From positions 37,464 to 101,463 of the forward strand of contig CAYWAH010000001.1 in assembly GCA_964456505.1 (NCBI GenBank): 64,000 nucleotides of DNA. Reading direction: 5' to 3'. How positions within the stretch are numbered: position 1 is the stretch's first letter; every line of letters starts with the position of its first letter. Position numbers and translations under genes: made by a program. This document shows positions 25,415 to 49,101 of the stretch, in pieces. The notes under the pieces are model-generated. The model searched no databases, was not told the origin of the DNA, and worked only from the letters and a program-made list of their open reading frames with translations. The DNA is from an uncultured Clostridium sp. Its GTDB lineage: Bacteria > Bacillota > Clostridia > TANB77 > CAG-508.

Positions 25415-26881
25415 ATGTCTGATATTACAGAATTAACAGTACATGAATTAGTTGAAAAATTAAATAATAAGGAACTAACTTCGAGTGAGATTGTTGAAGC
25501 GTATTCAAAAAAAATAAAGGAAAATGATCAAAAAGTCGATGCTTTTATTTCTACATATTTAGATGAAGCAGGGAAAAAGGCAGAAGAAGTTGATAAAGAA
25601 AACATAGATAGAAGCAAATATGAATTTGCAGGAATTCCTATTGGAATAAAAGATAATATTTGTGTAAATGGCACAAAAACTACTTGCGCTTCAAAAATGC
25701 TTGAGAATTTTGTTGCACCATATGATGCTACAGTAATTGAAAAATTGAATGATGAAAAAATAATCAGCCTTGGAAAATTAAATTTGGATGAATTTGCAAT
25801 GGGGAGTTCTACAGAAAACTCTGCATTTAAAGTTACTCATAACCCATGGGATTTGAACAAAGTTCCAGGAGGCTCATCAGGCGGATGCGCTGCAGCTGTT
25901 GCAGCAAATGAGGTACCTTGGGCATTAGGCTCAGATACAGGAGGATCAATTAGAGAGCCAGCATCTTTTTGTGGAGTAGTTGGATTGAAACCTACTTATG
26001 GACTAGTTTCAAGATATGGATTGGTTGCGTTTGCGTCATCACTTGATCAAATTGGACCAATTACAAAAGATGTAAAAGATTCTGCAATGCTAATGAATTT
26101 GATTACAGGACATGATGAAAAAGATTCTACTTCTTATGATAGACCAAAAGTTGACTATACAAAATGCTTGAAAAATGATGTAAAAGGATTGAAAATCGGT
26201 GTTCCAAAAGAGTTCTTTGGAGAAGGTATTAATGAAGAAGTAAAGAACAAATTGAATGAGGCAATTGAAACATACAAATCTTTAGGAGCAGAAGTCGAAG
26301 AATGCTCATTAGATGTTGCAAAATATGCACTTGCCGCTTACTATATAATCGCATGTGCTGAAGCCAGTTCAAACCTTGGAAGATTTGATGGAATTAGATA
26401 TGGCTATAGAGCAAAAGATTATAAAGATTTGAATGATTTATTTGTTAAATCAAGAAGTGAAGCATTTGGACCAGAAGTTAAAAGAAGAATAATTTTAGGA
26501 ACGTATGTATTGTCATCAGGATATTATGATGCTTATTACAAAAAGGCACAGAAAGTTAGAACTGTAATAAAAAATAGATTTGATGAATGCTTCAAAAAAT
26601 ATGATGTTTTGTTAACACCAGTTTGCCCAACAACAGCATTTGAAATAGGCTCAAAAACACAAGATCCTATGTCAATGTATTTGGCAGATATTTGCACAGT
26701 ATCAATAAATATAGCATCTGTTCCAGCAATATCAATTCCGGCAGGCGTAGATAAAAACAATATGCCAATTGGAATGCAATTGATAGGAAATAGATTCCAA
26801 GAAGAAACAATACTTAATGCTGCATATACATTTGAACAAAAAATCAAATTTAGAGAAAATCATAAACCAATAGTAAAATAG
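25415..26881 (+). CDS. gatA: Glutamyl-tRNA(Gln) amidotransferase subunit A
   Basis: It carries the amidase signature [13 protein letters not shown], the catalytic Ser in GSDTGGSIR and the Lys in IGIKDN. The protein is 488 aa. Confidence 0.9.
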
Positions 26882-26893
26882 AAAGGTAAATAA

Positions 26894-28330
26894 ATGTCAG
26901 GAGATTATGAAACAATAATTGGACTTGAGGTCCATGCAGAATTAAAAACAAAAACAAAAGTATTCTGTTCTTGCAAAAATAGTTTCGGCGATGAGCCAAA
27001 CACAAATGTATGCCCAATATGTATGGCATTGCCTGGAGCACTTCCAACATTAAACGAAAGTGTTGTTGAATATGCCGTAAAAGCAGGACTTGCAACAAAT
27101 TGCTCTATTTCGCAAGATAGTAAAAACGATAGAAAAAATTATTTCTATCCAGATTTACCAAAATCATATCAGATTTCTCAATATGATAAGCCATTATGCA
27201 ATCATGGCTATATTGAAATTGAAGGCGATGATGGTAACACAAAAAAGATTAGAATTTTAAGAATACATATTGAGGAAGATGCAGGAAAATTAAACCATAA
27301 TGAATTTTCTGGTGGAAGCTTAGTTGACTTAAATAGATCAGGAGTTCCATTAATTGAAATTGTATCAGAACCAGATATACGTTCAAGTACTGAAGCAGAT
27401 AGATATTTAAGAAAACTAAAATCAATTTTGCAATACATTGAAGTATCTGATTGTAAGATGGAAGAAGGTTCTTTAAGAGCAGATGTAAACGTTTCTGTAC
27501 ATAAAATTGGAGAACCATTTGGCACACGTCATGAAATGAAAAACATGAGCTCATTTAAATCAATTCAAAGAGCAATTGATTATGAAAGCATGGCTCAACA
27601 GCAAGAACTTGAAAAAGGAAATACCATTGAACAGGACACAATGAGATGGGATGATGTTCAAGGAAGAACATATATAATGAGATCTAAAGAGGATGCTCAA
27701 GATTACAGATATTTCCCAGAACCAGATCTAGTTGCAATAAAACTTTCAGATGAATACATAGAAAACGTTAGAAAGAATTTGCCAGAATTACCTGAAAGTA
27801 GAAAAGCAAGATATATGAAGGAAATAGGACTTTCAGAGAAAGATGCAAAAGCATTAACTTCATCAAAAGCATATTCTGACATATTTGAAAAAGCAGGAAG
27901 CATTTGCAAAAATTACAAGGGAGTATGCAATTGGTTAACATCTGATATTGCTAGAATTTTAAATGAGAATGAAATGGAACCAGATGATATTCCATTTACA
28001 GCAGAGCAATTGGCAGAACTTGTTGAATTAATTGACAATGGAACTATTAGCTCAAAAATTGGAAAAGACGTAATAGAGGAAATGTTTAAAAATCCACGTT
28101 CTCCAAAGGACATAGTAAAGGAAAATGGTTGGATACAAATTTCAGATGAATCTGAAATTCAAGAATTAGTTGATAGAATACTAGAGGCAAATCCTCAATC
28201 TATTATTGATTTTAAAACAGGAAAAGATAGAGCTTTAGGATTTTTAGTTGGTCAAGCCATGAAGGAAACCAAGGGCAAAGCCAATCCTAAAATGCTAAAC
28301 GAGATGTTCTTAAAAGGACTAAACAAGTAA
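26894..28330 (+). CDS. gatB: Aspartyl/glutamyl-tRNA amidotransferase subunit B
   Basis: The N-terminus is YETIIGLEVHAEL. The protein is 478 aa and has a C-terminal GatB/YqeY domain. Confidence 0.9.
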   Translation: MSGDYETIIGLEVHAELKTKTKVFCSCKNSFGDEPNTNVCPICMALPGALPTLNESVVEYAVKAGLATNCSISQDSKNDRKNYFYPDLPKSYQISQYDKPLCNHGYIEIEGDDGNTKKIRILRIHIEEDAGKLNHNEFSGGSLVDLNRSGVPLIEIVSEPDIRSSTEADRYLRKLKSILQYIEVSDCKMEEGSLRADVNVSVHKIGEPFGTRHEMKNMSSFKSIQRAIDYESMAQQQELEKGNTIEQDTMRWDDVQGRTYIMRSKEDAQDYRYFPEPDLVAIKLSDEYIENVRKNLPELPESRKARYMKEIGLSEKDAKALTSSKAYSDIFEKAGSICKNYKGVCNWLTSDIARILNENEMEPDDIPFTAEQLAELVELIDNGTISSKIGKDVIEEMFKNPRSPKDIVKENGWIQISDESEIQELVDRILEANPQSIIDFKTGKDRALGFLVGQAMKETKGKANPKMLNEMFLKGLNK

Positions 28331-40373: not shown

Positions 40374-41111
40374 ATGCGTAATATTAAAATAACAATAGAA
40401 TATGATGGAAAAGATTTTAATGGCTGGCAAAAACAACCTAATAAATTGAATATTCAAGGAGAAATAGAAAGAGCAATTGAAATTGTAACAGGAGAAAAAG
40501 TTGATTTAATTGGTTCTGGAAGAACCGATGCAGGTGTAAATGCATTAAATCAGGTTGCAAATTTTAAAATTGAAAATAATATTCCAATTGAAAAAATTCC
40601 TTATGCGCTAAATTCACAACTAAAAAAATCTATTAGAATAAAAAAGGCAGAAGAAGTTGATGAAAGATTTCACAGTAGATATCATTGCAAGAAAAAAACA
40701 TACCAATATACAATAAATAATTCAGAACAAGGGACTGCAATTTATAGATATATGCAATATCATTATCAATATAAACTTGATGAAAATAAAATGAATGAGG
40801 CTGTAAAATATTTGATTGGAGAGCACGATTTCAAATCTTTTAAAGCAAGTGGCGGAAGCGGAAAAACAACTGTTAGAGTTATTTATGATGCAAGTGTAAA
40901 AAGAGATGGAGATTTAATTTATATTACACTAACAGGAAATGGTTTTTTATATAATATGATTAGAATTATAGCAGGTACATTGATTGAAATTGGAGAAGAA
41001 AAATATGAACCTTCAAAAATGAAAGAAATTCTTGATGCAAAAGATAGAAGTTTGGCTGGAAAAACTTTGCCAGCCAATGGACTATGTTTGATGAATGTAA
41101 TTTATGATTAA
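40374..41111 (+). CDS. truA: tRNA pseudouridine(38-40) synthase TruA
   Basis: The N-terminus IEYDGKDFNGWQKQPN matches, and the catalytic Asp lies in GSGRTDAGVNA. Confidence 0.85.
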   Translation: MRNIKITIEYDGKDFNGWQKQPNKLNIQGEIERAIEIVTGEKVDLIGSGRTDAGVNALNQVANFKIENNIPIEKIPYALNSQLKKSIRIKKAEEVDERFHSRYHCKKKTYQYTINNSEQGTAIYRYMQYHYQYKLDENKMNEAVKYLIGEHDFKSFKASGGSGKTTVRVIYDASVKRDGDLIYITLTGNGFLYNMIRIIAGTLIEIGEEKYEPSKMKEILDAKDRSLAGKTLPANGLCLMNVIYD

Positions 41112-41160
41112 AATAGATTGCTAAAATTTTTATAAAATAAGATAAGAAAAAATATTGAAA

Positions 41161-41189
41161 GTTTATAGGAAACTTTTTAAAACCTAAAT
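41161..41189 (+). promoter_or_regulatory. Conserved 30-nt motif, copy A (GTTTATAGGAAAC-TTTTTAAAACCTAAAT), upstream of mutS2
   Basis: It is about 85% identical to 48032-48061. A 5-bp hairpin AGTTT-ATAGG-AAACT is followed by AAAACCTAAAT. Confidence 0.4.
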
Positions 41190-41210
41190 TGATTTATGAG
41201 GGAAAATAAA

Positions 41211-43415
41211 ATGCTTGAAAAATATTTAGACAAACTAGAATATAATGTAATTAGAGATTCATTGGAAAACGAGTGTGAAACATTTGAAGGAAAAAAGATT
41301 GCTTCAAAGTTAACACCATCATCTGATGAAGAAACAGTAAAAAAATTACTTGAAGAAACAACCTCTGGTTGCAATTTATATCATTTAAGAGGAAGCGCAC
41401 CAATTTCACAAATTGATGATATGAGTTTAATATTAAAAAGAATACAAAGTAACATTTTACTTAATGCAAAATCTCTTTTGGATATTGCAGAAATTTTAAA
41501 TACAGCAAAAGAATTAAAAAAATATGTTGCAAATATTGATGAAACAGAGTATTCTTTAATTTCAAATTTGTTTAATGACTTATATGTAAATGATAATATT
41601 TACGAAAAAATATGCTTTTCAATTATTTCAGAGGATGAAATTTCTGATAATGCTTCAAAAAAGTTAGCATCAATCAGAAGAAATAAAAAGAATTTGGAAT
41701 TGCAAATAAAGTCACAATTAAACAAAATAATTCATTCAACAACATATTCAAAATATATTATGGATCCTGTAATTACAGTAAGAAATGACAGATATGTTGT
41801 TCCTGTAAAAGAAGAATATAGAAATCAAGTTAAAGGATTTGTACACGATATATCACAAAGCAAATCCACTGTATACATTGAGCCAATGGCTGTTTTTGAG
41901 ATAAATAATAGTATAAATAATTTAACAATTGAGGAGCAAAATGAAATAGCAAGAATACTTGAAAATTTATCAGAGATGGTGTATCCAATTTCAAATTTGA
42001 TAAAGCAAGATGTTGAAATAATTGGAAAGTTAGATTTCATTTTTTCAAAAGTAAAGTATGCTGTAAATAACGATTGCACTTGCCCTAACATTACGAATTA
42101 TATTGAATTTAAAAATGCTAGACATCCACTTATTGATAAAGAAAAAGTTGTACCAATAACTATAGAAGTAGGAAAGAAAGATTTTACTACGTTAGTTATT
42201 ACAGGACCTAACACAGGAGGAAAAACTGTTACATTAAAAACGGTAGGACTATTGTCTGCGATGGCACAATCAGGAATGCATATTCCAGTACAAGAGGGGA
42301 GCTCAATAAAAGTATTTGACAATATTTTTGCAGACATAGGAGATGAACAAAGTATTGAAGAATCATTAAGTACTTTTTCATCACATATAAAAAATATTGT
42401 ACAAATATTATCAATGTTTACAGAAAAAAGTTTGATTTTAGTTGATGAGCTAGGCTCTGGAACAGACCCAATTGAAGGTGCAAATTTAGCAATTAGTTTA
42501 CTAGAAACGTTTAACAAAAAAGGTGCTTTTACAATTGCTACAACACACTATCATGAAATAAAAACCTATTGTTTATCACACGAAGGATTTGAAAATGCTA
42601 GTTGTGAATTTGATATTAAGAAAATGCAACCAACATATCATTTATTACTTGGAATTCCTGGAAAGAGTAATGCATTTGCAATTTGTAAAGAACTTGGAAT
42701 ATCTTATGAAATAATTGATAGAGCATCAAGTTTGATAAGCAAGCCGGATACAGATATTGAAACAATAATGAAGCAAATGCATGATGACAAAGTTGAAGTT
42801 GAAAAAATAAAAATAGAAGAGCAAAAGAACTTAAATCAAATAGAATTGTTGAGAAAAGATTTGCAGAAAGAATATTCTGATAAACTTCAAAAAGAAGAAG
42901 AAAAGATAGAAGAATCTAAAAAGAAAGCCAAAGAAATTTTAGTTGATGCAAAGGAAGAAGCAAATAGAATAATAAACAATTTATCAAAGCTTGATTCTAA
43001 AGATGCTAAAAAAGCAAATCAATTACGTAGTGAACTTGATAATGATCTAAACAAATTTGGTGGAGATAATTTGGATTTTTCAAACTTGTTGAAATTAAAT
43101 AACAAGGAAACAAAATCTTTAGATAAAAATAATAATAGCAGTGTCCATATACATAATAACAAAGCATCAACAGTTTCATCTGAAATAAATTTAATAGGCG
43201 AGACAGTACAAGATGGCTGTGAAATCCTTGATAAATATTTAGACAATGCAAAAATGGCAAATCTAAAAACAGTAAGAGTAATTCATGGAAAAGGCTCTGG
43301 AAAATTACGTGAGGGAATTCATAAATATTTAAAGAATTCAAAATATGTAAAGGACTTTCATATTGCTTCTTATGGAGAAGGAGATTATGGAGTAACGATA
43401 GTTGAATTAAAATAG
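41211..43415 (+). CDS. mutS2: Endonuclease MutS2 (MutS domain + C-terminal Smr)
   Basis: A GAGGGA RBS lies 8 nt upstream. It carries the Walker A motif GPNTGGKT and a C-terminal Smr domain (VIHGKGSGKLR). Confidence 0.85.
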   Translation: MLEKYLDKLEYNVIRDSLENECETFEGKKIASKLTPSSDEETVKKLLEETTSGCNLYHLRGSAPISQIDDMSLILKRIQSNILLNAKSLLDIAEILNTAKELKKYVANIDETEYSLISNLFNDLYVNDNIYEKICFSIISEDEISDNASKKLASIRRNKKNLELQIKSQLNKIIHSTTYSKYIMDPVITVRNDRYVVPVKEEYRNQVKGFVHDISQSKSTVYIEPMAVFEINNSINNLTIEEQNEIARILENLSEMVYPISNLIKQDVEIIGKLDFIFSKVKYAVNNDCTCPNITNYIEFKNARHPLIDKEKVVPITIEVGKKDFTTLVITGPNTGGKTVTLKTVGLLSAMAQSGMHIPVQEGSSIKVFDNIFADIGDEQSIEESLSTFSSHIKNIVQILSMFTEKSLILVDELGSGTDPIEGANLAISLLETFNKKGAFTIATTHYHEIKTYCLSHEGFENASCEFDIKKMQPTYHLLLGIPGKSNAFAICKELGISYEIIDRASSLISKPDTDIETIMKQMHDDKVEVEKIKIEEQKNLNQIELLRKDLQKEYSDKLQKEEEKIEESKKKAKEILVDAKEEANRIINNLSKLDSKDAKKANQLRSELDNDLNKFGGDNLDFSNLLKLNNKETKSLDKNNNSSVHIHNNKASTVSSEINLIGETVQDGCEILDKYLDNAKMANLKTVRVIHGKGSGKLREGIHKYLKNSKYVKDFHIASYGEGDYGVTIVELK

Positions 43416-43577
43416 TTAAATTTATTTTATTGTAATATTTTATCGTAATTTTTTTATTATTAAAATGTATAAATTTTATAAAATTATTTAAAATATTTTG
43501 TAGATTTCTGTTGTATTTTATTTTTCTTGGTGTTATAATTTTAGTATAATTTGAAGAAAAAAGGAAAGGATAGTAAT

Positions 43578-45128
43578 ATGAAAAAGTTAACAAAATTAGT
43601 TGCTATTTTAATGGCATTTATGTTAGTTATGTTACCTACTTTTGCCTTAGCAGATACACAAGTTGCAAAAGAACAAGCTACTATGACATTAGTAAAAGAT
43701 GACAAGGCAGACGTAAAATTTGGAAAATATGGAGAATTTACAAAATCAAAGAGTGATTTCAATGCAACAAACAAAACAATTGATATTACTCTAACTGTAA
43801 AAAATAATGCTGAAAAGGCTAAACAATTACCAGGAGAAGTTGTTCTTTTAATTGATTCATCAGGAAGTATGGACAAAAATAAAGTAACAATAGATGGAAC
43901 TGAAATGACAAGAAAACAAGCAGTTCTATCTGCAGCAAATACATTAATTAATAAATTATATGAAATAAAACCAGACATTAAGATTGGTATTGCAGAATAT
44001 GCAACAGCAAAAGATGCTGCAAAAAGAGGAACAATGGATGATGCATTTGTAAATACTGCATTAACATCAAACAAAGATACTGTTACATCAGGTTTATCAA
44101 ATGTAGGAAAACATGATTTCTTTACCCAAACAGATATTGAGGCTGGAATCGACACAGCAAAGTCAATGTTTTCAAAAGATACAACATCAAAAAAATATAT
44201 TATATTATTAACAGATGGTATTCCAAATGTTTCACTAGGTAAATATGCAAGTGAGGATAAACATTTATACTATTATGAAAGAGATCAATTTGATGCTACA
44301 AAGAAAGCATTAACAGATGCGACTTCAAAAGGATATAATATTATTTCTGGATTAATTGATATGTTAACAGATACAGTTGAGAATTCTGTTACACTAAAAG
44401 AATCAAATTCAACATCTACTGATGAAGAAATTCAAAACATGACAAAGAAAGAAGCTGTAGAATATATTTTTGGAACACAAGATGCTCCTACAACAGGAAT
44501 GGTATTTAATGTAGCAGACAAAAATATTATTACTGTTATTTCAGAAAATATATTTGATGCATTAGTTGGAGAAGTTTATTCACTAACAGACATTAATATT
44601 GATGATGTAATACCAGATAATATTTACAATAACTTTAATGTTTCATTCATTTCATTTGAAAGTAGTGTTAAAGGAAAAGGTAATAAAATAGACACAACAG
44701 CACCTGACATTGAATATAATTTAGTTCATGACAAAGCAGCAGGCTCTGACACTGCAAAAATGTGGGATGCTAAATATACTGCTAAAAATAAAACGATTAA
44801 TTTGAAACTTGATGTGCTAGATCCTCAAGAAACATGTACATTAGTTTATAGATTAACGTTGAAAGACAAATTTAGTAGTGATATATTGGACAAAGATTTA
44901 CCAACAAATAAAAATGTAACGATTAACTATTCTGAAAATGGTAAAGCTGGTACACCTGTTACTACACCAAAATGTCCAGCAGTTAAATTAACAATTCCAA
45001 AAGTTGCAAAACCAATTCCACAAACAGGAACAAAAGCAAATACAATTATTTTATCTGTAGTTGTTTTAGGAACAGTATTAGCAATTGCTATTGTAAGTAT
45101 TGTTAATTACAAAAAAAATAGTTTATAA
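43578..45128 (+). CDS. Sortase-anchored surface protein with von Willebrand factor A (VWA) domain
   Basis: An AAAGGAAAGGA RBS precedes the start. The signal peptide is cleaved near ALA-DT. The MIDAS motif is DSSGSM. The C-terminal cell-wall sorting signal is IPQTG, followed by a hydrophobic stretch and KKNSL. Confidence 0.65.
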   Translation: MKKLTKLVAILMAFMLVMLPTFALADTQVAKEQATMTLVKDDKADVKFGKYGEFTKSKSDFNATNKTIDITLTVKNNAEKAKQLPGEVVLLIDSSGSMDKNKVTIDGTEMTRKQAVLSAANTLINKLYEIKPDIKIGIAEYATAKDAAKRGTMDDAFVNTALTSNKDTVTSGLSNVGKHDFFTQTDIEAGIDTAKSMFSKDTTSKKYIILLTDGIPNVSLGKYASEDKHLYYYERDQFDATKKALTDATSKGYNIISGLIDMLTDTVENSVTLKESNSTSTDEEIQNMTKKEAVEYIFGTQDAPTTGMVFNVADKNIITVISENIFDALVGEVYSLTDINIDDVIPDNIYNNFNVSFISFESSVKGKGNKIDTTAPDIEYNLVHDKAAGSDTAKMWDAKYTAKNKTINLKLDVLDPQETCTLVYRLTLKDKFSSDILDKDLPTNKNVTINYSENGKAGTPVTTPKCPAVKLTIPKVAKPIPQTGTKANTIILSVVVLGTVLAIAIVSIVNYKKNSL

Positions 45129-45150
45129 TATAAAATTATAAAGTAAAATA

Positions 45151-45195
45151 AAATCCAATTGTTTAATGAAAGTTAGCAATTGGATTTATTTTTAT
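45151..45195 (+). terminator. Rho-independent terminator after the VWA protein
   Basis: The stem AAATCCAATTG / CAATTGGATTT has a 16-nt loop and is followed by ATTTTTAT. Confidence 0.55.
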
Positions 45196-45260
45196 ATGAA
45201 AAAATTTGTTGATAAGTTTCATTTTGTGTGTTAAAATATGTAAAAATAGAAAGGCAAAAA

Positions 45261-47480
45261 ATGATAGCAGAAGTAATAATTGAAAGTAGTGTAAACAATT
45301 TAAATCATACATTTGATTATGAAATTCCAAGCGACATTGATGTTCATATTGGAAGCAGAGTTTTTGTGCCTTTCGGAAATAAGAAAAGTTTAGAGCAGGG
45401 GATTGTTATCAACATTAAAGAAAACACAAATTATAAAGTGAAACCAATAAGCGCTTTACAAAAAGAACAAATAAATGATGAATATATAGAGCTTGCAAAA
45501 TGGATGTCAAAAAGATACTTCTGTAATCTTGCAGATTGCTTAAGGCTAATGCTCCCACCTGGTAGAACCTCTAAAAACATAGAAAACAGAATTGATGATA
45601 AAAAAATATATTGCATTAGTTTAGCTAATCCAAAAGAAGAAACTGAAAGAATTTTAAGTGAAGAAAAATTTAGATCTGATAAGCAAAAAAGAGTTCTTGA
45701 ATTTTTAATTAATAATAATAATTCAAGCATTCAAGATATTGAAATGTTTACAGGAGAAGACCTTGCAGTAGTAAACGCATTAGTAAAAAAAGGATATGTA
45801 AAAAAAGAACTTGCTAAAGTTGAAAGAAATCCGCTTATCAACAGAGATGTTGTGAGAACTGTGGATTTAAAATTAAATGATGAACAGCAAAATGCTTTCA
45901 ATTCAATTAAAGATAATGGGGAATATTTGATTTATGGAATTACTGGTTCTGGAAAAACAGAAATTTATTTGCAGTTAATTGAAAGAATGCTTAAGCAAAA
46001 TAAATCAAGTATTATGTTAGTACCGGAAATTTCTTTAACACCACAAACGATTGAAAGGTTTGTAGCAAGATTTGGAAGTGAACAAATTGCTGTATTGCAT
46101 AGCAAACTTTCTGTTGGAGAAAGATTTGACGAATGGAATAAAATAAAGGAAGGTAGAGCAAAGATTATTATTGGGGCAAGATCTGCAATTTTTGCTCCTT
46201 GTGTTAATCTTGGTTTAATTGTTATTGATGAAGAGCATGATGAGTCATATCAATCTGAAAAAAAGCCTGAATATTCTGCTATTGAAGTTAGTGAATTTTT
46301 AGCTGATAGATTAAATATTCCACTTGTTCTTGGAAGCGCAACACCTGATATGAAAACATTTAATAGAGCCAAGAACAATGAAATAAAATTGCTAACTATA
46401 AAAAATAGGGCAAATTCAAGCACATTACCAGATGTAGAAATTGTTGACTTAAGAGATGAACTTGCTAAAGGCAATAAAAGTATGATTAGTAGAAAGTTGA
46501 GAGAAGAAATCAACAAAAATATTGAAAACAAAAAACAGACAATTCTTTTCCTAAATAGAAGAGGATTCTCAACTTTTGTAATGTGTAGAGATTGCGGAGA
46601 AACTATTAAATGCAAGAGATGTAACATCACACTTACATATCATAAAAGAGAAAACAAATTGAAATGTCATTATTGTGGCTATGAACAAAACATAGTAACA
46701 GAATGCCCAAATTGCCATAGCAAAAATATTAGATATTTTGGTGGTGGAACACAAAAACTTGAAGATGAGGTTAAATTGATGTTTCCACAGGCAAGTACAA
46801 TTAGGATGGATATTGATACTGTTACAAAAAAGAATTCTCATGAAATGATTTTGTCAAAATTCAAAAATGAAAATATTGATATTTTAATAGGAACTCAAAT
46901 GGTTGTAAAAGGTCACGATTTTCCTAATGTAACTCTCGTTGGTGTAATTGCTGCAGACACTAATTTAAATATAGGAGATTATAGAGCAAGTGAAATTACA
47001 TTCCAAACTTTAACACAGGTTGCTGGAAGAGCGGGAAGAGGAAAAGATAAAGGAAAAGTTATTATTCAAACATACAATCCTGAACATTATGCAATTGAAT
47101 ATTCAAAAGCGCAAGATTATGATTCATTCTATGATACAGAAATTGGAATAAGAAAAGCATTGAAATATCCGCCATTTTGCGATATAATTGTTTTGAAGAT
47201 GACTTCCAAAAATCAAAATGAATTGAAAAATGTATCCAAAAAAATTCATACATATTTGAAAGATAGAGTAATTAATGAAAAATTTGGAGTTATTCTTTAT
47301 AGCCCAGTTCCATGTCCTATTGATAAAATAAAAGATAGATATAGAATGAGAATTTTAATAAAATGTTTATATGATGAAAAAGTAAATGATTTATTAAATG
47401 GCGCTATGAATGAATATTATAAATTGAAACTTGATACCACAAGATTAAATATTGAGGTAAATCCAAATAATATGTTATAA
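45261..47480 (+). CDS. priA: Primosomal protein N' (PriA helicase)
   Basis: An AAAGG RBS precedes the start. It carries the N-terminal 3'BD (FDYEIP...G.RV.VPFG), the Walker A motif GITGSGKT, the DEEH box, and a Cys-rich Zn-binding insertion (CxxC x4). Confidence 0.85.
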   Translation: MIAEVIIESSVNNLNHTFDYEIPSDIDVHIGSRVFVPFGNKKSLEQGIVINIKENTNYKVKPISALQKEQINDEYIELAKWMSKRYFCNLADCLRLMLPPGRTSKNIENRIDDKKIYCISLANPKEETERILSEEKFRSDKQKRVLEFLINNNNSSIQDIEMFTGEDLAVVNALVKKGYVKKELAKVERNPLINRDVVRTVDLKLNDEQQNAFNSIKDNGEYLIYGITGSGKTEIYLQLIERMLKQNKSSIMLVPEISLTPQTIERFVARFGSEQIAVLHSKLSVGERFDEWNKIKEGRAKIIIGARSAIFAPCVNLGLIVIDEEHDESYQSEKKPEYSAIEVSEFLADRLNIPLVLGSATPDMKTFNRAKNNEIKLLTIKNRANSSTLPDVEIVDLRDELAKGNKSMISRKLREEINKNIENKKQTILFLNRRGFSTFVMCRDCGETIKCKRCNITLTYHKRENKLKCHYCGYEQNIVTECPNCHSKNIRYFGGGTQKLEDEVKLMFPQASTIRMDIDTVTKKNSHEMILSKFKNENIDILIGTQMVVKGHDFPNVTLVGVIAADTNLNIGDYRASEITFQTLTQVAGRAGRGKDKGKVIIQTYNPEHYAIEYSKAQDYDSFYDTEIGIRKALKYPPFCDIIVLKMTSKNQNELKNVSKKIHTYLKDRVINEKFGVILYSPVPCPIDKIKDRYRMRILIKCLYDEKVNDLLNGAMNEYYKLKLDTTRLNIEVNPNNML

Positions 47481-47492
47481 AAGGAGTAATAA

Positions 47493-47984
47493 ATGGCAAT
47501 TAGAAATTTACGTTATCAAAATGATGAAATACTTAGAAAAAAATCAAGAGAGGTTGAAGTAGTTGATGACAAAATAAGAGAACTATTAAATGATATGGAT
47601 GAAACTATGCATGAAGACAATGGCGTAGGACTTTCTGCTGTACAAGTCGGTGTTCTTAAAAGAGTAATTGTTATCGATGTTAAATATGATGGATCTCCAT
47701 CATTGAAATTGGTTAACCCTGTAATCGTCAAAGAAAAGGGAAAACAAGAAGTTGATGAAGGTTGCTTAAGCTTTCCAAATGAATATGCAAAAGTAATTAG
47801 ACCAAAAGAAGTTGTCGTTGAGGCTCTTGATGAAAATGGAAAAAAGGTAAAAATCAAAGCAGATAATTTATTGGCACAAGCACTTTGCCATGAAATAGAT
47901 CATTTAGATGGAATACTTTTTGTTGACAGAATGGAACCTGGCACACTTGAATACATTGACCCTTCAGAAGAAGACAAAGAGTAA
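47493..47984 (+). CDS. def: Peptide deformylase
   Basis: All three conserved motifs are present: GVGLSAVQVG, EGCLSFP and HEIDHLDG. Confidence 0.9.
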   Translation: MAIRNLRYQNDEILRKKSREVEVVDDKIRELLNDMDETMHEDNGVGLSAVQVGVLKRVIVIDVKYDGSPSLKLVNPVIVKEKGKQEVDEGCLSFPNEYAKVIRPKEVVVEALDENGKKVKIKADNLLAQALCHEIDHLDGILFVDRMEPGTLEYIDPSEEDKE

Positions 47985-48031
47985 TTGATTAAAAAAATAA
48001 ATAAAAATGAAAAGAAAAATAAAATCAATCA

Positions 48032-48061
48032 GGTTTATAGGTAACCTTTAAAAACCTAAAT
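48032..48061 (+). promoter_or_regulatory. Conserved 30-nt motif, copy B (GGTTTATAGGTAACCTTTAAAAACCTAAAT), upstream of fmt
   Basis: A 5-bp hairpin AGGTT-TATAGGT-AACCT carries a compensatory G-C versus T-A change relative to copy A at 41161. The 3' half AAAACCTAAAT is identical. Confidence 0.4.
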
Positions 48062-48087
48062 ATTATTTTAGAATGGATATAATTTCT

Positions 48088-49101
48088 ATGAAAATTGTTT
48101 TTATGGGAACACCTGATTTTGCATTAGAATCTTTAAAAGCATTATATGAAACAGATAATGAAATAGCATTGGTTGTAACAAATCCTGACAGAAAAAAAGG
48201 AAGAGGAATGAAAATGTCTTTTTCTCCTGTAAAAGAATTTGCAGTTGAAAAAAATTTGAATATTTCACAACCAATCAAAATTAGAGATAATGAAGAGTTT
48301 GCAGAAGAACTTAGAAAAATAGAACCAGACCTATTCTGTGTAGTTGCCTATGGAAAAATTTTACCAAAAGAAATTTTAGAGATTCCTAAATATGGCTCAA
48401 TAAATGTACATGGTTCACTACTTCCAGAATATAGGGGAGCATGCCCAATTCAATGGTCTGTAATCAATGGAGATAAAGAAACAGGAATTACTACAATGTT
48501 TATGGATGAGGGAATGGACACAGGAGACATTATTTTACAAGAAAAAGTTTCAATAGGAGATGATGAAACACTAGGAGAATTGTGGAATAGACTTGCTATT
48601 TTAGGTGGAAAGAAATTAGTAGAAACAGTTTCAAAAATAGAGCAAGAATCTAGCAAAATATCAAATGTAAATGATATAAAAAGCGAGATAAAAAAATTAG
48701 TTAATGCTAAAAAACAAGGAGAAAAATTTACTATTGCTCCAATGCTTACAAAAGAAATTGCAAAAATAAATTGGAATGAAAGTTCATTAAAAATTAAAAA
48801 TCTAATAAGAGGGCTTAACCCTGAAATGGGAGCATATGCTATATACAATGGAAAAAAAATAAAAGTTTGGATAGCACAAATTGTTAATGAAAATGCTTTG
48901 AATGAACTAATACAAGATAACATTGAAATTAACAAATTTAAACCAGGAGAAATTATTCTAGCTGATAGAAGAAAAGGATTACTTGTAAAAACAGGAGATG
49001 GAGTAATTAGCTTACTTGAACTTCAACCAGAGAATTCAAAAAGAATGGACTACACAAATTTTCTAAATGGATATAAAGTTGAGGGTAAATTCGAAAACTA
49101 A
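48088..49101 (+). CDS. fmt: Methionyl-tRNA formyltransferase
   Basis: It has the N-terminus MKIVFMGTPDFA and the motifs NVHGSLLP and HxxD. An alternative upstream ATG lies at 48073. Confidence 0.85.
   Translation: MKIVFMGTPDFALESLKALYETDNEIALVVTNPDRKKGRGMKMSFSPVKEFAVEKNLNISQPIKIRDNEEFAEELRKIEPDLFCVVAYGKILPKEILEIPKYGSINVHGSLLPEYRGACPIQWSVINGDKETGITTMFMDEGMDTGDIILQEKVSIGDDETLGELWNRLAILGGKKLVETVSKIEQESSKISNVNDIKSEIKKLVNAKKQGEKFTIAPMLTKEIAKINWNESSLKIKNLIRGLNPEMGAYAIYNGKKIKVWIAQIVNENALNELIQDNIEINKFKPGEIILADRRKGLLVKTGDGVISLLELQPENSKRMDYTNFLNGYKVEGKFEN

Follow-up and report, generated by a model that had tools for sequence, protein, structure and literature searches.

What is the sequence of about 30 nucleotides (nt) that recurs, nearly unchanged, before both mutS2 and fmt in the genome of an uncultured Clostridium species, and does it act as DNA or as RNA? 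The DNA analysed here, which we refer to as the window, is a stretch of 64,000 nt of contig CAYWAH010000001.1 (assembly GCA_964456505.1, positions 37,464 to 101,463 of the forward strand), with a G+C content of about 27%. First-pass annotation of the window had described two similar elements before these genes, and the window sequence reads as it was quoted: copy 1, GTTTATAGGAAACTTTTTAAAACCTAAAT, occupies 41161-41189 (+) and ends 21 nt before the start of mutS2 at 41211, while copy 2, (G)GTTTATAGGTAACCTTTAAAAACCTAAAT, occupies 48032/48033-48061 (+) and ends 26 nt before the start of fmt at 48088, both starts being supported by a Shine-Dalgarno (SD) sequence. The copies are identical at 26 of 29 positions without a gap. 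Comparison with other genomes shows that they belong to a family of predicted sense-strand RNA pseudoknots, in which both helices covary and in which orientation and spacing from the SD sequence are fixed. The element is probably a general gene-expression signal that acts on mRNA.

A family of related elements in gut Clostridia

Species representatives of the GTDB, one genome per species, were scanned with the pattern GTTTATAGG-N10-13-AAACCTAAAT, and metagenome contigs were scanned with the variant pattern described below. Each of these large scans returned at least 120 matches, and the counts given here are counts among the matches listed. The species-representative genomes contain at least 120 stretches that fit the pattern exactly, which rules out a chance origin of the pair in the window; three matches (L012, L073 and L080) were excluded from the family as chance matches. 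The first-pass annotation had named the existence of these two copies alone as a refutation of its reading; more than 100 other genomes carry the motif, although the window itself holds only the two. All but about three of the listed matches lie in low-GC metagenome-assembled genomes (MAGs) labelled Clostridia or Clostridium sp. (CAG:389, CAG:575, 26_21, 27_14), and the gut samples behind the carrier MAGs are of human, rabbit, chicken and ruminant origin. One match belongs to a named strain, Peptostreptococcaceae bacterium oral taxon 113 str. W5053 (L081).

Across the family the consensus reads aaG-GTTTATAGG-(t)(a)aa.CC(t)t.-AAAAACCTAAAT-atat.a.a-AAGGA-...-ATG. Individual copies are 28 to at least 33 nt long, with 37, 43, 20 and 21 copies having 29, 30, 31 and 32 nt respectively. 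About ten additional copies or variants were found in 1 Mb of flanking sequence around the family loci, and extrapolation from this density suggests, as a very rough estimate, that a genome holds some tens of copies.

On a sister metagenome contig (L001), with an Fmt protein 92% identical to that of the window, the motif is kept before fmt with both halves unchanged and a different middle part; in relatives at 64-66% Fmt identity the def-fmt spacers are 29-49 nt long and the motif is absent. No mutS2 orthologue carrying the motif was found, and a variant resembling copy 1 (L107) sits before metG. Orthologous copies before ptsI (L057, L071, L090) and pheT (L016, L038, L053) are conserved across species, including the variable part. 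The junction of gatA and gatB comprises 12 nt in the window (26881-26894), whereas in L021 (7460-7595, - strand) it carries the motif and is about 130 nt long, so that the cassette is evidently gained or lost at orthologous junctions. Some five family-like matches occurred in 2.9 million viral contigs, and a phage origin was rejected on account of this rarity.

Two covarying helices and a predicted pseudoknot

The first-pass annotation had given each copy a hairpin, AAAGUUU/AAACUUU in copy 1 and AGGUU/AACCU in copy 2, and this hairpin, here called P1, is supported across the family. It pairs (A)G(-1)G1U2U3(U4) with (A)AACC(U) of the variable middle part. We built a covariance model on 28 unambiguous copies and aligned 113 matches with it; copies of AAAUCC type fit two registers of P1, and the register was settled by this alignment. 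Base -1 and its partner, the second C of the internal CC, are GC in 96 copies, AU in 12 and another combination in two, and by our own count this pair is GC in 23, AU in four and UA in one of the 28 seed sequences. The covariation score of the whole structure is 0.067, against 0.045 +/- 0.002 in shuffled alignments (reached by none of 500), and it falls to 0.022 or less once the partners are slid by 1-3 columns. The two window copies differ at this very pair, A41160-U41174 in copy 1 and G48032-C48046 in copy 2, which the first-pass annotation had read as a compensatory T-A to G-C change and as a sign of selection on RNA structure; weak when drawn from two sequences, that argument is convincing with covariation across more than 100 members. 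Further variants of P1 include GUG/CAC (L108), AGUUG/CAACU (L053) and AGGG/CCCU (L081). Base U2 forms a U-A pair in 42 copies and a U.G wobble in 15, and is unpaired, mostly as U.U, in 46, making P1 both short and imperfect.

The same annotation had left the 3' part of the element as an unpaired tail, and this part of its description did not stand: the loop U6A7G8G9(U10) is complementary to the 3' (A)CCUA, with which it would form a second helix, S2. Since the first pattern fixed the bases of S2, the metagenome contigs were scanned with a pattern that required A, C or U in place of G9 and allowed any base (N) at its proposed partner. Matches counted as family-like if they combined a G at -1 with a CC within the middle part and with an SD sequence at the usual distance. 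About 19 family-like variants were obtained, from some 14 non-orthologous loci. All of them combine A9 with U49 (GTTTATAGA...AAATCTAAAT) and none retains C49; matches with A9 that do retain C49 are coding or unrelated sequence, apart from one ambiguous case (L211). On the joint alignment the G9:C49 pair is GC in 81 copies, AU in 14 and another combination in one, without any single-sided change. Three loci (L050, L092 and L256) each hold one GG/CC copy and one GA/UC copy, and the change is thus compensatory within a genome. A lineage-wide shift in the recognition code of a protein, considered as a cause of the GA/UC form, was rejected because both forms occur in single loci.

These observations fit an H-type pseudoknot of about 35 nt, in which the strands would follow in the order P1 5', S2 5', P1 3', S2 3'. 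The intervening loops of 1-2 nt, 0-5 nt and, in an A-rich segment, 5-9 nt suit the classical H-type fold. A nested alternative, pairing GGUUU with a tail AAACC and UAGG with an internal CCUA, was rejected, as both covarying pairs fit the pseudoknot topology only: A at -1 is matched by U of the internal CC and not of the tail, and A at G9 by U of the tail and not of the internal segment. Compensatory change on the transcribed strand, the mark of a structured cis-acting mRNA element, is seen in both pairs, in the U.G wobbles and against the controls. Folding energy alone is uninformative, with z-scores of -0.3 to -1.1 in three of four stretches and +0.2 in the fourth; swapping the upstream flanks between copies shifts the mean hairpin energy from -3.14 to -2.94 +/- 0.10 kcal/mol.

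In L256 two copies, at 2281-2318 (-) and 2473-2515 (+), precede divergent genes at a distance of about 190 nt from each other; one is GG/CC and the other GA/UC. A sub-type in metagenome contigs L164, L189, L224, L254 and L218 reads UGA-GUUUAUAGA-UAUCUC(C/U)UAACAA-AAAUCUAAAU, with A at -1; here a UAGUUAA...UUAACUA hairpin replaces the SD sequence at the usual distance, and the covariance model misses the sub-type at E up to 1.

Position relative to the Shine-Dalgarno sequence and the upstream gene

Every family-like copy for which downstream sequence is covered is followed, on its own strand, by the start of a protein-coding gene, and an RNA gene follows in none of about 120 copies. The cassette has a constant order of pseudoknot, AU-rich linker of about 10 nt, AAGGA-type SD sequence and start codon, the distance from the tail to the first G of the SD sequence having a median of 12 nt and falling in the range of 9-13 nt for 93 of the 116 copies. 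About 15 copies have AAGGAGA at the usual distance, followed by a hairpin of 6-13 bp (-4 to -12 kcal/mol) and an A-rich stretch, with the AUG 38-62 nt past the tail. Retention of the SD spacing where a hairpin displaces the AUG indicates that pseudoknot, linker and SD sequence together make up the conserved unit. Such copies could represent a split site, with SD sequence, hairpin and AUG in succession, or a stabiliser-type use of an SD-like sequence. They include the following.

Hairpin after AAGGAGA: L032, L043, L050, L045, L062, L091, L011, L020, L022, L038, L049, L069, L097, L115

Of 114 upstream genes, 98 are co-directional and the other 16 divergent, and the motif occurs both between cistrons and in the 5' untranslated regions of first genes. 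About 37 copies have the upstream stop codon 13 nt or less away, and for six of them that stop is the motif's own UAG, the upstream open reading frame (ORF) ending at -8 relative to the motif start; as this UAG is part of S2, the terminating ribosome must unwind the pseudoknot. In L016 a T-box leader (5237-5458, 118 bits) heads the operon and the motif (7285-7314) lies between an ORF of 111 amino acids and pheT, so that it occurs inside a riboswitch-controlled transcription unit, the T-box-led pheS-pheT operon. Directly 5' of the fold there is an A-rich single-stranded stretch that ends in G, and hexamers resembling a -10 box are broadly enriched, without a fixed position, in the 35 nt upstream of the motif.

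The two copies in the window

No third copy was found in the 64-kb window by nhmmer or by the covariance model. Within it, the 13-nt 5' half GTTTATAGGNAAC has matches without mismatch at 41161 and 48033 only, and the 14-nt 3' half has matches with 0-1 mismatch at 41176 and 48048 only; a repeat search of the window also recovered the two copies as a direct repeat. Their parts are as follows.

41158-41164 (+): copy 1, P1 5' strand, AAAGUUU, with core G41161 and base -1 = A41160 (sequence, RNAfold, family covariation)
41166-41169 (+): copy 1, S2 5' strand, UAGG, in the hairpin loop (complementary to 41183-41186; G9:C49 covaries in the family)
41170-41176 (+): copy 1, P1 3' strand, AAACUUU, pairing C41173-G41161 and U41174-A41160 (sequence, RNAfold, covariation)
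41177-41182 (+): copy 1, A-rich loop L3, UUAAAA (A-rich and of variable length between P1 and S2 in the family alignment)
41183-41189 (+): copy 1, S2 3' strand, CCUA (41183-41186), and conserved AAU (sequence, covariation)
41190-41213 (+): copy 1, AU-rich linker, SD sequence GAGGGA (41198-41203) and mutS2 ATG (41211-41213) (sequence, family spacing, Pfam)
48031-48035 (+): copy 2, P1 5' strand, AGGUU, with base -1 = G48032, then G48033 (sequence, RNAfold, covariation)
48038-48042 (+): copy 2, S2 5' strand, UAGGU (complementary to 48054-48058; covariation)
48043-48047 (+): copy 2, P1 3' strand, AACCU (sequence, covariation)
48048-48053 (+): copy 2, A-rich loop L3, UUAAAA (sequence, family alignment)
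48054-48061 (+): copy 2, S2 3' strand, ACCUA (48054-48058), and conserved AAU (sequence, covariation; unchanged in L001)
48062-48090 (+): copy 2, AU-rich linker, weak SD sequence GGA (48075-48077) and fmt ATG (48088-48090) (sequence, Pfam)

For copy 1, RNAfold returns a stem of 8 bp that includes an extra G41157.U41177 wobble. Pfam identifies the gene runs as cdaA, truA, mutS2 and priA, def, fmt; truA (40374-41111) is followed by mutS2, with MutS_V and Smr domains, and def (47493-47984) by fmt. A scan of the window found no terminator-like site in the truA-mutS2 or the def-fmt spacer, in agreement with the first-pass annotation. Additional in-frame ATGs lie 15 nt 5' of the SD-supported starts, at 41196 (mutS2) and 48073 (fmt), making the mechanical ORF calls for both genes five codons too long; on the sister contig L001 the gene call for fmt begins at the equivalent of 48088. 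The contig closest to the window has 89% DNA identity, and an exact look-up of the window Def protein matched no record.

Other repeats in the window were of different kinds. Direct repeats at 5022-5078/7785-7841, 7936-7979/8388-8431 and 8325-8369/8759-8803, with 78-86% identity, suggest duplicated intergenic leaders and tandem paralogous genes in the region of about 5-9 kb. Internal direct repeats of about 70-100 nt at 57727-57909/57928-58113, spaced by about 200 nt and 71-74% identical, look like a repeated protein domain within one gene.

Downstream genes and comparison with known RNAs

The 115 downstream proteins comprise 188 Pfam families, with at most three members in any one family; there is no coherent regulon, and the genes share no common function. 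Judged by their N-termini, they presumably include MetRS, PheRS-beta, LysRS, GatB, PolA, TopA, DnaB, RadA, RuvA and DisA, and likewise MurC/D, Ddl, FtsW, AckA, Pgm, PtsI, GroEL, Tgt, FolD and SpoIIAB.

Rfam 15 does not match the motif at the gathering score, in the window and 18 loci, nor permissively at E up to 10 (two copies) or E up to 1 (eight loci). All Rfam matches lay off the motif, comprising tRNAs, 6S, SRP RNA and one T-box, plus two below threshold. Full-text literature searches, by keyword and by sequence string, returned nothing relevant to the motif. This small RNA pseudoknot family is apparently undescribed, and we know of no generic cassette of pseudoknot and SD sequence in the literature; T-boxes and other known multi-copy leaders serve genes of a single functional class.

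The known RNA nearest to the motif in architecture is the preQ1-I aptamer (Rfam RF00522). This is an H-type pseudoknot of about 34 nt, with a first helix of 5 bp, a short first loop and an A-rich third loop that runs along helix 1, and its second helix joins a UAG-type loop with a CUA-type 3' tail directly 5' of the SD sequence. The motif is likewise predicted to be a small H-type pseudoknot whose 3' loop is A-rich and whose second helix is formed by the 3' tail, each helix having a covarying pair. In contrast to preQ1-I, it is among the sequences that RF00522 leaves unmatched at all of the thresholds above, it has no conserved ligand-contacting C, its S2-P1 loop has 0 to about 5 nt of variable sequence, its second helix has an extra G-C pair at the position of preQ1, and its SD sequence lies about 10 nt downstream, outside the fold. 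Its genes are unrelated to queuosine, no Pfam family being dominant and one protein being apparently tgt-like, and it apparently has many copies per genome, by rough extrapolation, whereas preQ1-I has one or few.

The closest functional analogues, by comparison, are pseudoknot translational operators, intercistronic repeats of the repetitive extragenic palindromic (REP) type and the 5' stabilisers of Firmicutes. In rpsO/S15, rpmI-rplT/L20 and T4 gene 32, pseudoknots at or beside the ribosome-binding site act on 30S binding; these are single-copy and read by the protein of their own operon, whereas the motif precedes many unrelated genes. REP sequences and bacterial interspersed mosaic elements are, like the motif, short, multi-copy and often located between co-transcribed genes, and can differentiate the stability of cistrons. 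Yet REP sequences are GC-rich palindromes, found in either orientation and usually 3' of genes, as 3' stabilisers or protein-binding DNA, while the motif is a predicted AT-rich pseudoknot in one orientation at a fixed distance from the SD sequence. The 5' stem-loops of Firmicutes, the STAB-SD of cryIIIA and chloroplast sites of PPR10 type block 5'-to-3' decay and keep the ribosome-binding site open, and resemble the motif in lying just upstream of a cistron and in intercistronic positions; they depend on a bound ribosome, a pentatricopeptide repeat (PPR) protein or a strong 5'-terminal hairpin, in contrast to a weak, sequence-invariant pseudoknot. In the Pistol ribozyme (env25) a UUAGGG-like hairpin loop pairs with a downstream CCCUAA-like segment past an A-rich linker, but the motif has no Rfam match, lacks helices P2 and P3 and the G-U cleavage site, and is followed directly by the AU-rich linker and SD sequence. 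A CsrA site was also considered, UACAAGGA resembling the consensus obtained by in vitro selection (SELEX), and was dropped, as C occurs there in only about 17% of copies.

Discussion

Action on translation initiation of the downstream cistron is the most likely role of the element, because the SD spacing belongs to the conserved unit and RNA genes never lie downstream. Our preferred reading, to which we assign a probability of about 0.45, is that the element marks off the translation-initiation region on its 5' side, as a constitutive, self-folding boundary or insulator. The folded motif would sequester its own two CCU (anti-SD-like) and two AGG (SD-like) tracts, and the AU-rich linker and SD sequence would stay single-stranded, kept from pairing with upstream coding RNA; the pseudoknot may also dock on the 30S platform or serve as a standby structure. 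The downstream gene would then be translated efficiently regardless of the sequence upstream, and the cassette would take the place, within compact operons, of a tight coupling between stop and start codons. A bolder proposal, which we regard as doubtful, is that the cassette constitutes a third, sequence-invariant component of the ribosome-binding site in this low-GC clade of Clostridia, read by the ribosome or by one global factor, and so provides shared post-transcriptional control in place of stop-start coupling within operons. If true, it would be a control point for possibly dozens of housekeeping genes per genome, in replication, repair, aminoacyl-tRNA synthesis (the synthetases), cell wall and central metabolism.

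Several considerations weigh against the insulator. Covariation is seen for one pair per helix only, the conservation of sequence is partly a matter of ascertainment, as the search patterns dictated the remaining positions, and the simultaneous formation of P1 and S2 is deduced from loop lengths. U2 faces U in 46 of 113 copies. The energies are marginal (mean minimum free energy of the hairpin alone, -3.1 kcal/mol), the window copies have folding z-scores of -0.8 and -1.1 relative to shuffles, and RNAfold prefers a competing nested fold for copy 2. Finally, the near-invariance of the stems exceeds what a purely structural insulator needs, and points to a trans-acting reader, which makes such a reader a serious rival.

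According to that rival, the element is a regulated translational operator: an RNA-binding protein, a ribosomal component or a ligand stabilises or occludes the fold 10 nt from the SD sequence, and the translation of dozens of housekeeping genes is switched together. Stems that stay near-invariant across species and among paralogous copies, while the middle part varies, are typical of sequence-specific recognition, and the size and topology resemble those of ligand-binding H-type pseudoknots such as preQ1-I; the fixed SD distance and the nested alternative fold of some copies are also as an operator would have them. We nonetheless consider regulation of this kind unlikely, given an incoherent gene set, an S2-P1 loop too variable in length and sequence to show a conserved pocket, a short loop L1 that is altered in variants L022, L042 and L053, the lack of a match to any Rfam riboswitch model even at E up to 10, and the fact that no candidate for the reading factor emerged.

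A determinant of processing or stability is less likely again, although the idea stays live because many copies begin 13 nt or less from the upstream stop codon, in co-directional pairs. The fold would guide an RNase Y-type cut just upstream, block RNase J-type 5'-to-3' decay, or both, and the downstream cistron would thereby gain its own protected 5' end and half-life. The A-rich single-stranded stretch ending in G is suitably placed before the fold, and compact 5' structures and nearby SD-like sequences, as in cryIIIA STAB-SD, do stabilise Firmicute mRNAs; the AAGGAGA that lies far from the AUG in about 15 copies recalls a stabiliser SD. A pure stabiliser or cleavage guide, however, needs no fixed SD spacing and would be expected to precede RNA genes at times, which none of the copies does, and the fold is thermodynamically weak for a block to an exonuclease.

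The first-pass annotation had also read the element as a weak internal promoter with a shared operator at the level of DNA, TTTATA serving as -35 and TAAAT(A/T) as -10, and this has become very improbable. The AT-rich hexamers are indeed spaced by 17-18 bp in the commonest length classes, against the 16-18 bp of sigma-70-type promoters, always upstream of a gene and in a region enriched in -10-like hexamers, but TTTATA and TAAATA match the sigma-70 consensus (TTGACA, TATAAT) at 7 of 12 positions by our own count, and there is no site at 41162-41190 or 48034-48062 among the promoter-like sites listed, which are stronger than a further 44 in the window. The distance between the halves varies over at least 9-14 nt, the invariant GG/CC covary as base pairs and the U.G wobbles are strand-specific. 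A transcript starting after TAAAT would exclude the covarying helices, and in one case the element sits within an operon under T-box control. A selfish or neutral dispersed repeat, akin to a miniature inverted-repeat transposable element or REP sequence and devoid of any role in expression, is scarcely credible: the motif is short, multi-copy, quasi-palindromic as DNA and variably present at the gatA-gatB junction, but family-like copies all share one orientation to the downstream gene at fixed SD spacing, terminal inverted repeats or target duplications are not visible and the flanks are not conserved, the orthologous ptsI and pheT copies are preserved across species, variable part included, and compensatory changes preserve pairing.

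Should the insulator reading be right, the element would define a class of structured mRNA element that is both new and abundant, in a branch of gut Clostridia that is large and for the most part uncultured; in this class an H-type pseudoknot is physically coupled to the SD sequence of many unrelated essential genes. For practical purposes, it offers a compact, portable candidate expression module and, in the form GUUUAUAGG-N9-15-AAACCUAAAU, a signature for the annotation of gene starts in these MAGs. For the organisms themselves, it would bear on how AT-rich mRNAs of low structure secure translation initiation and stability, on how cistrons inside operons are uncoupled and balanced, and on whether these bacteria have a global post-transcriptional regulator.

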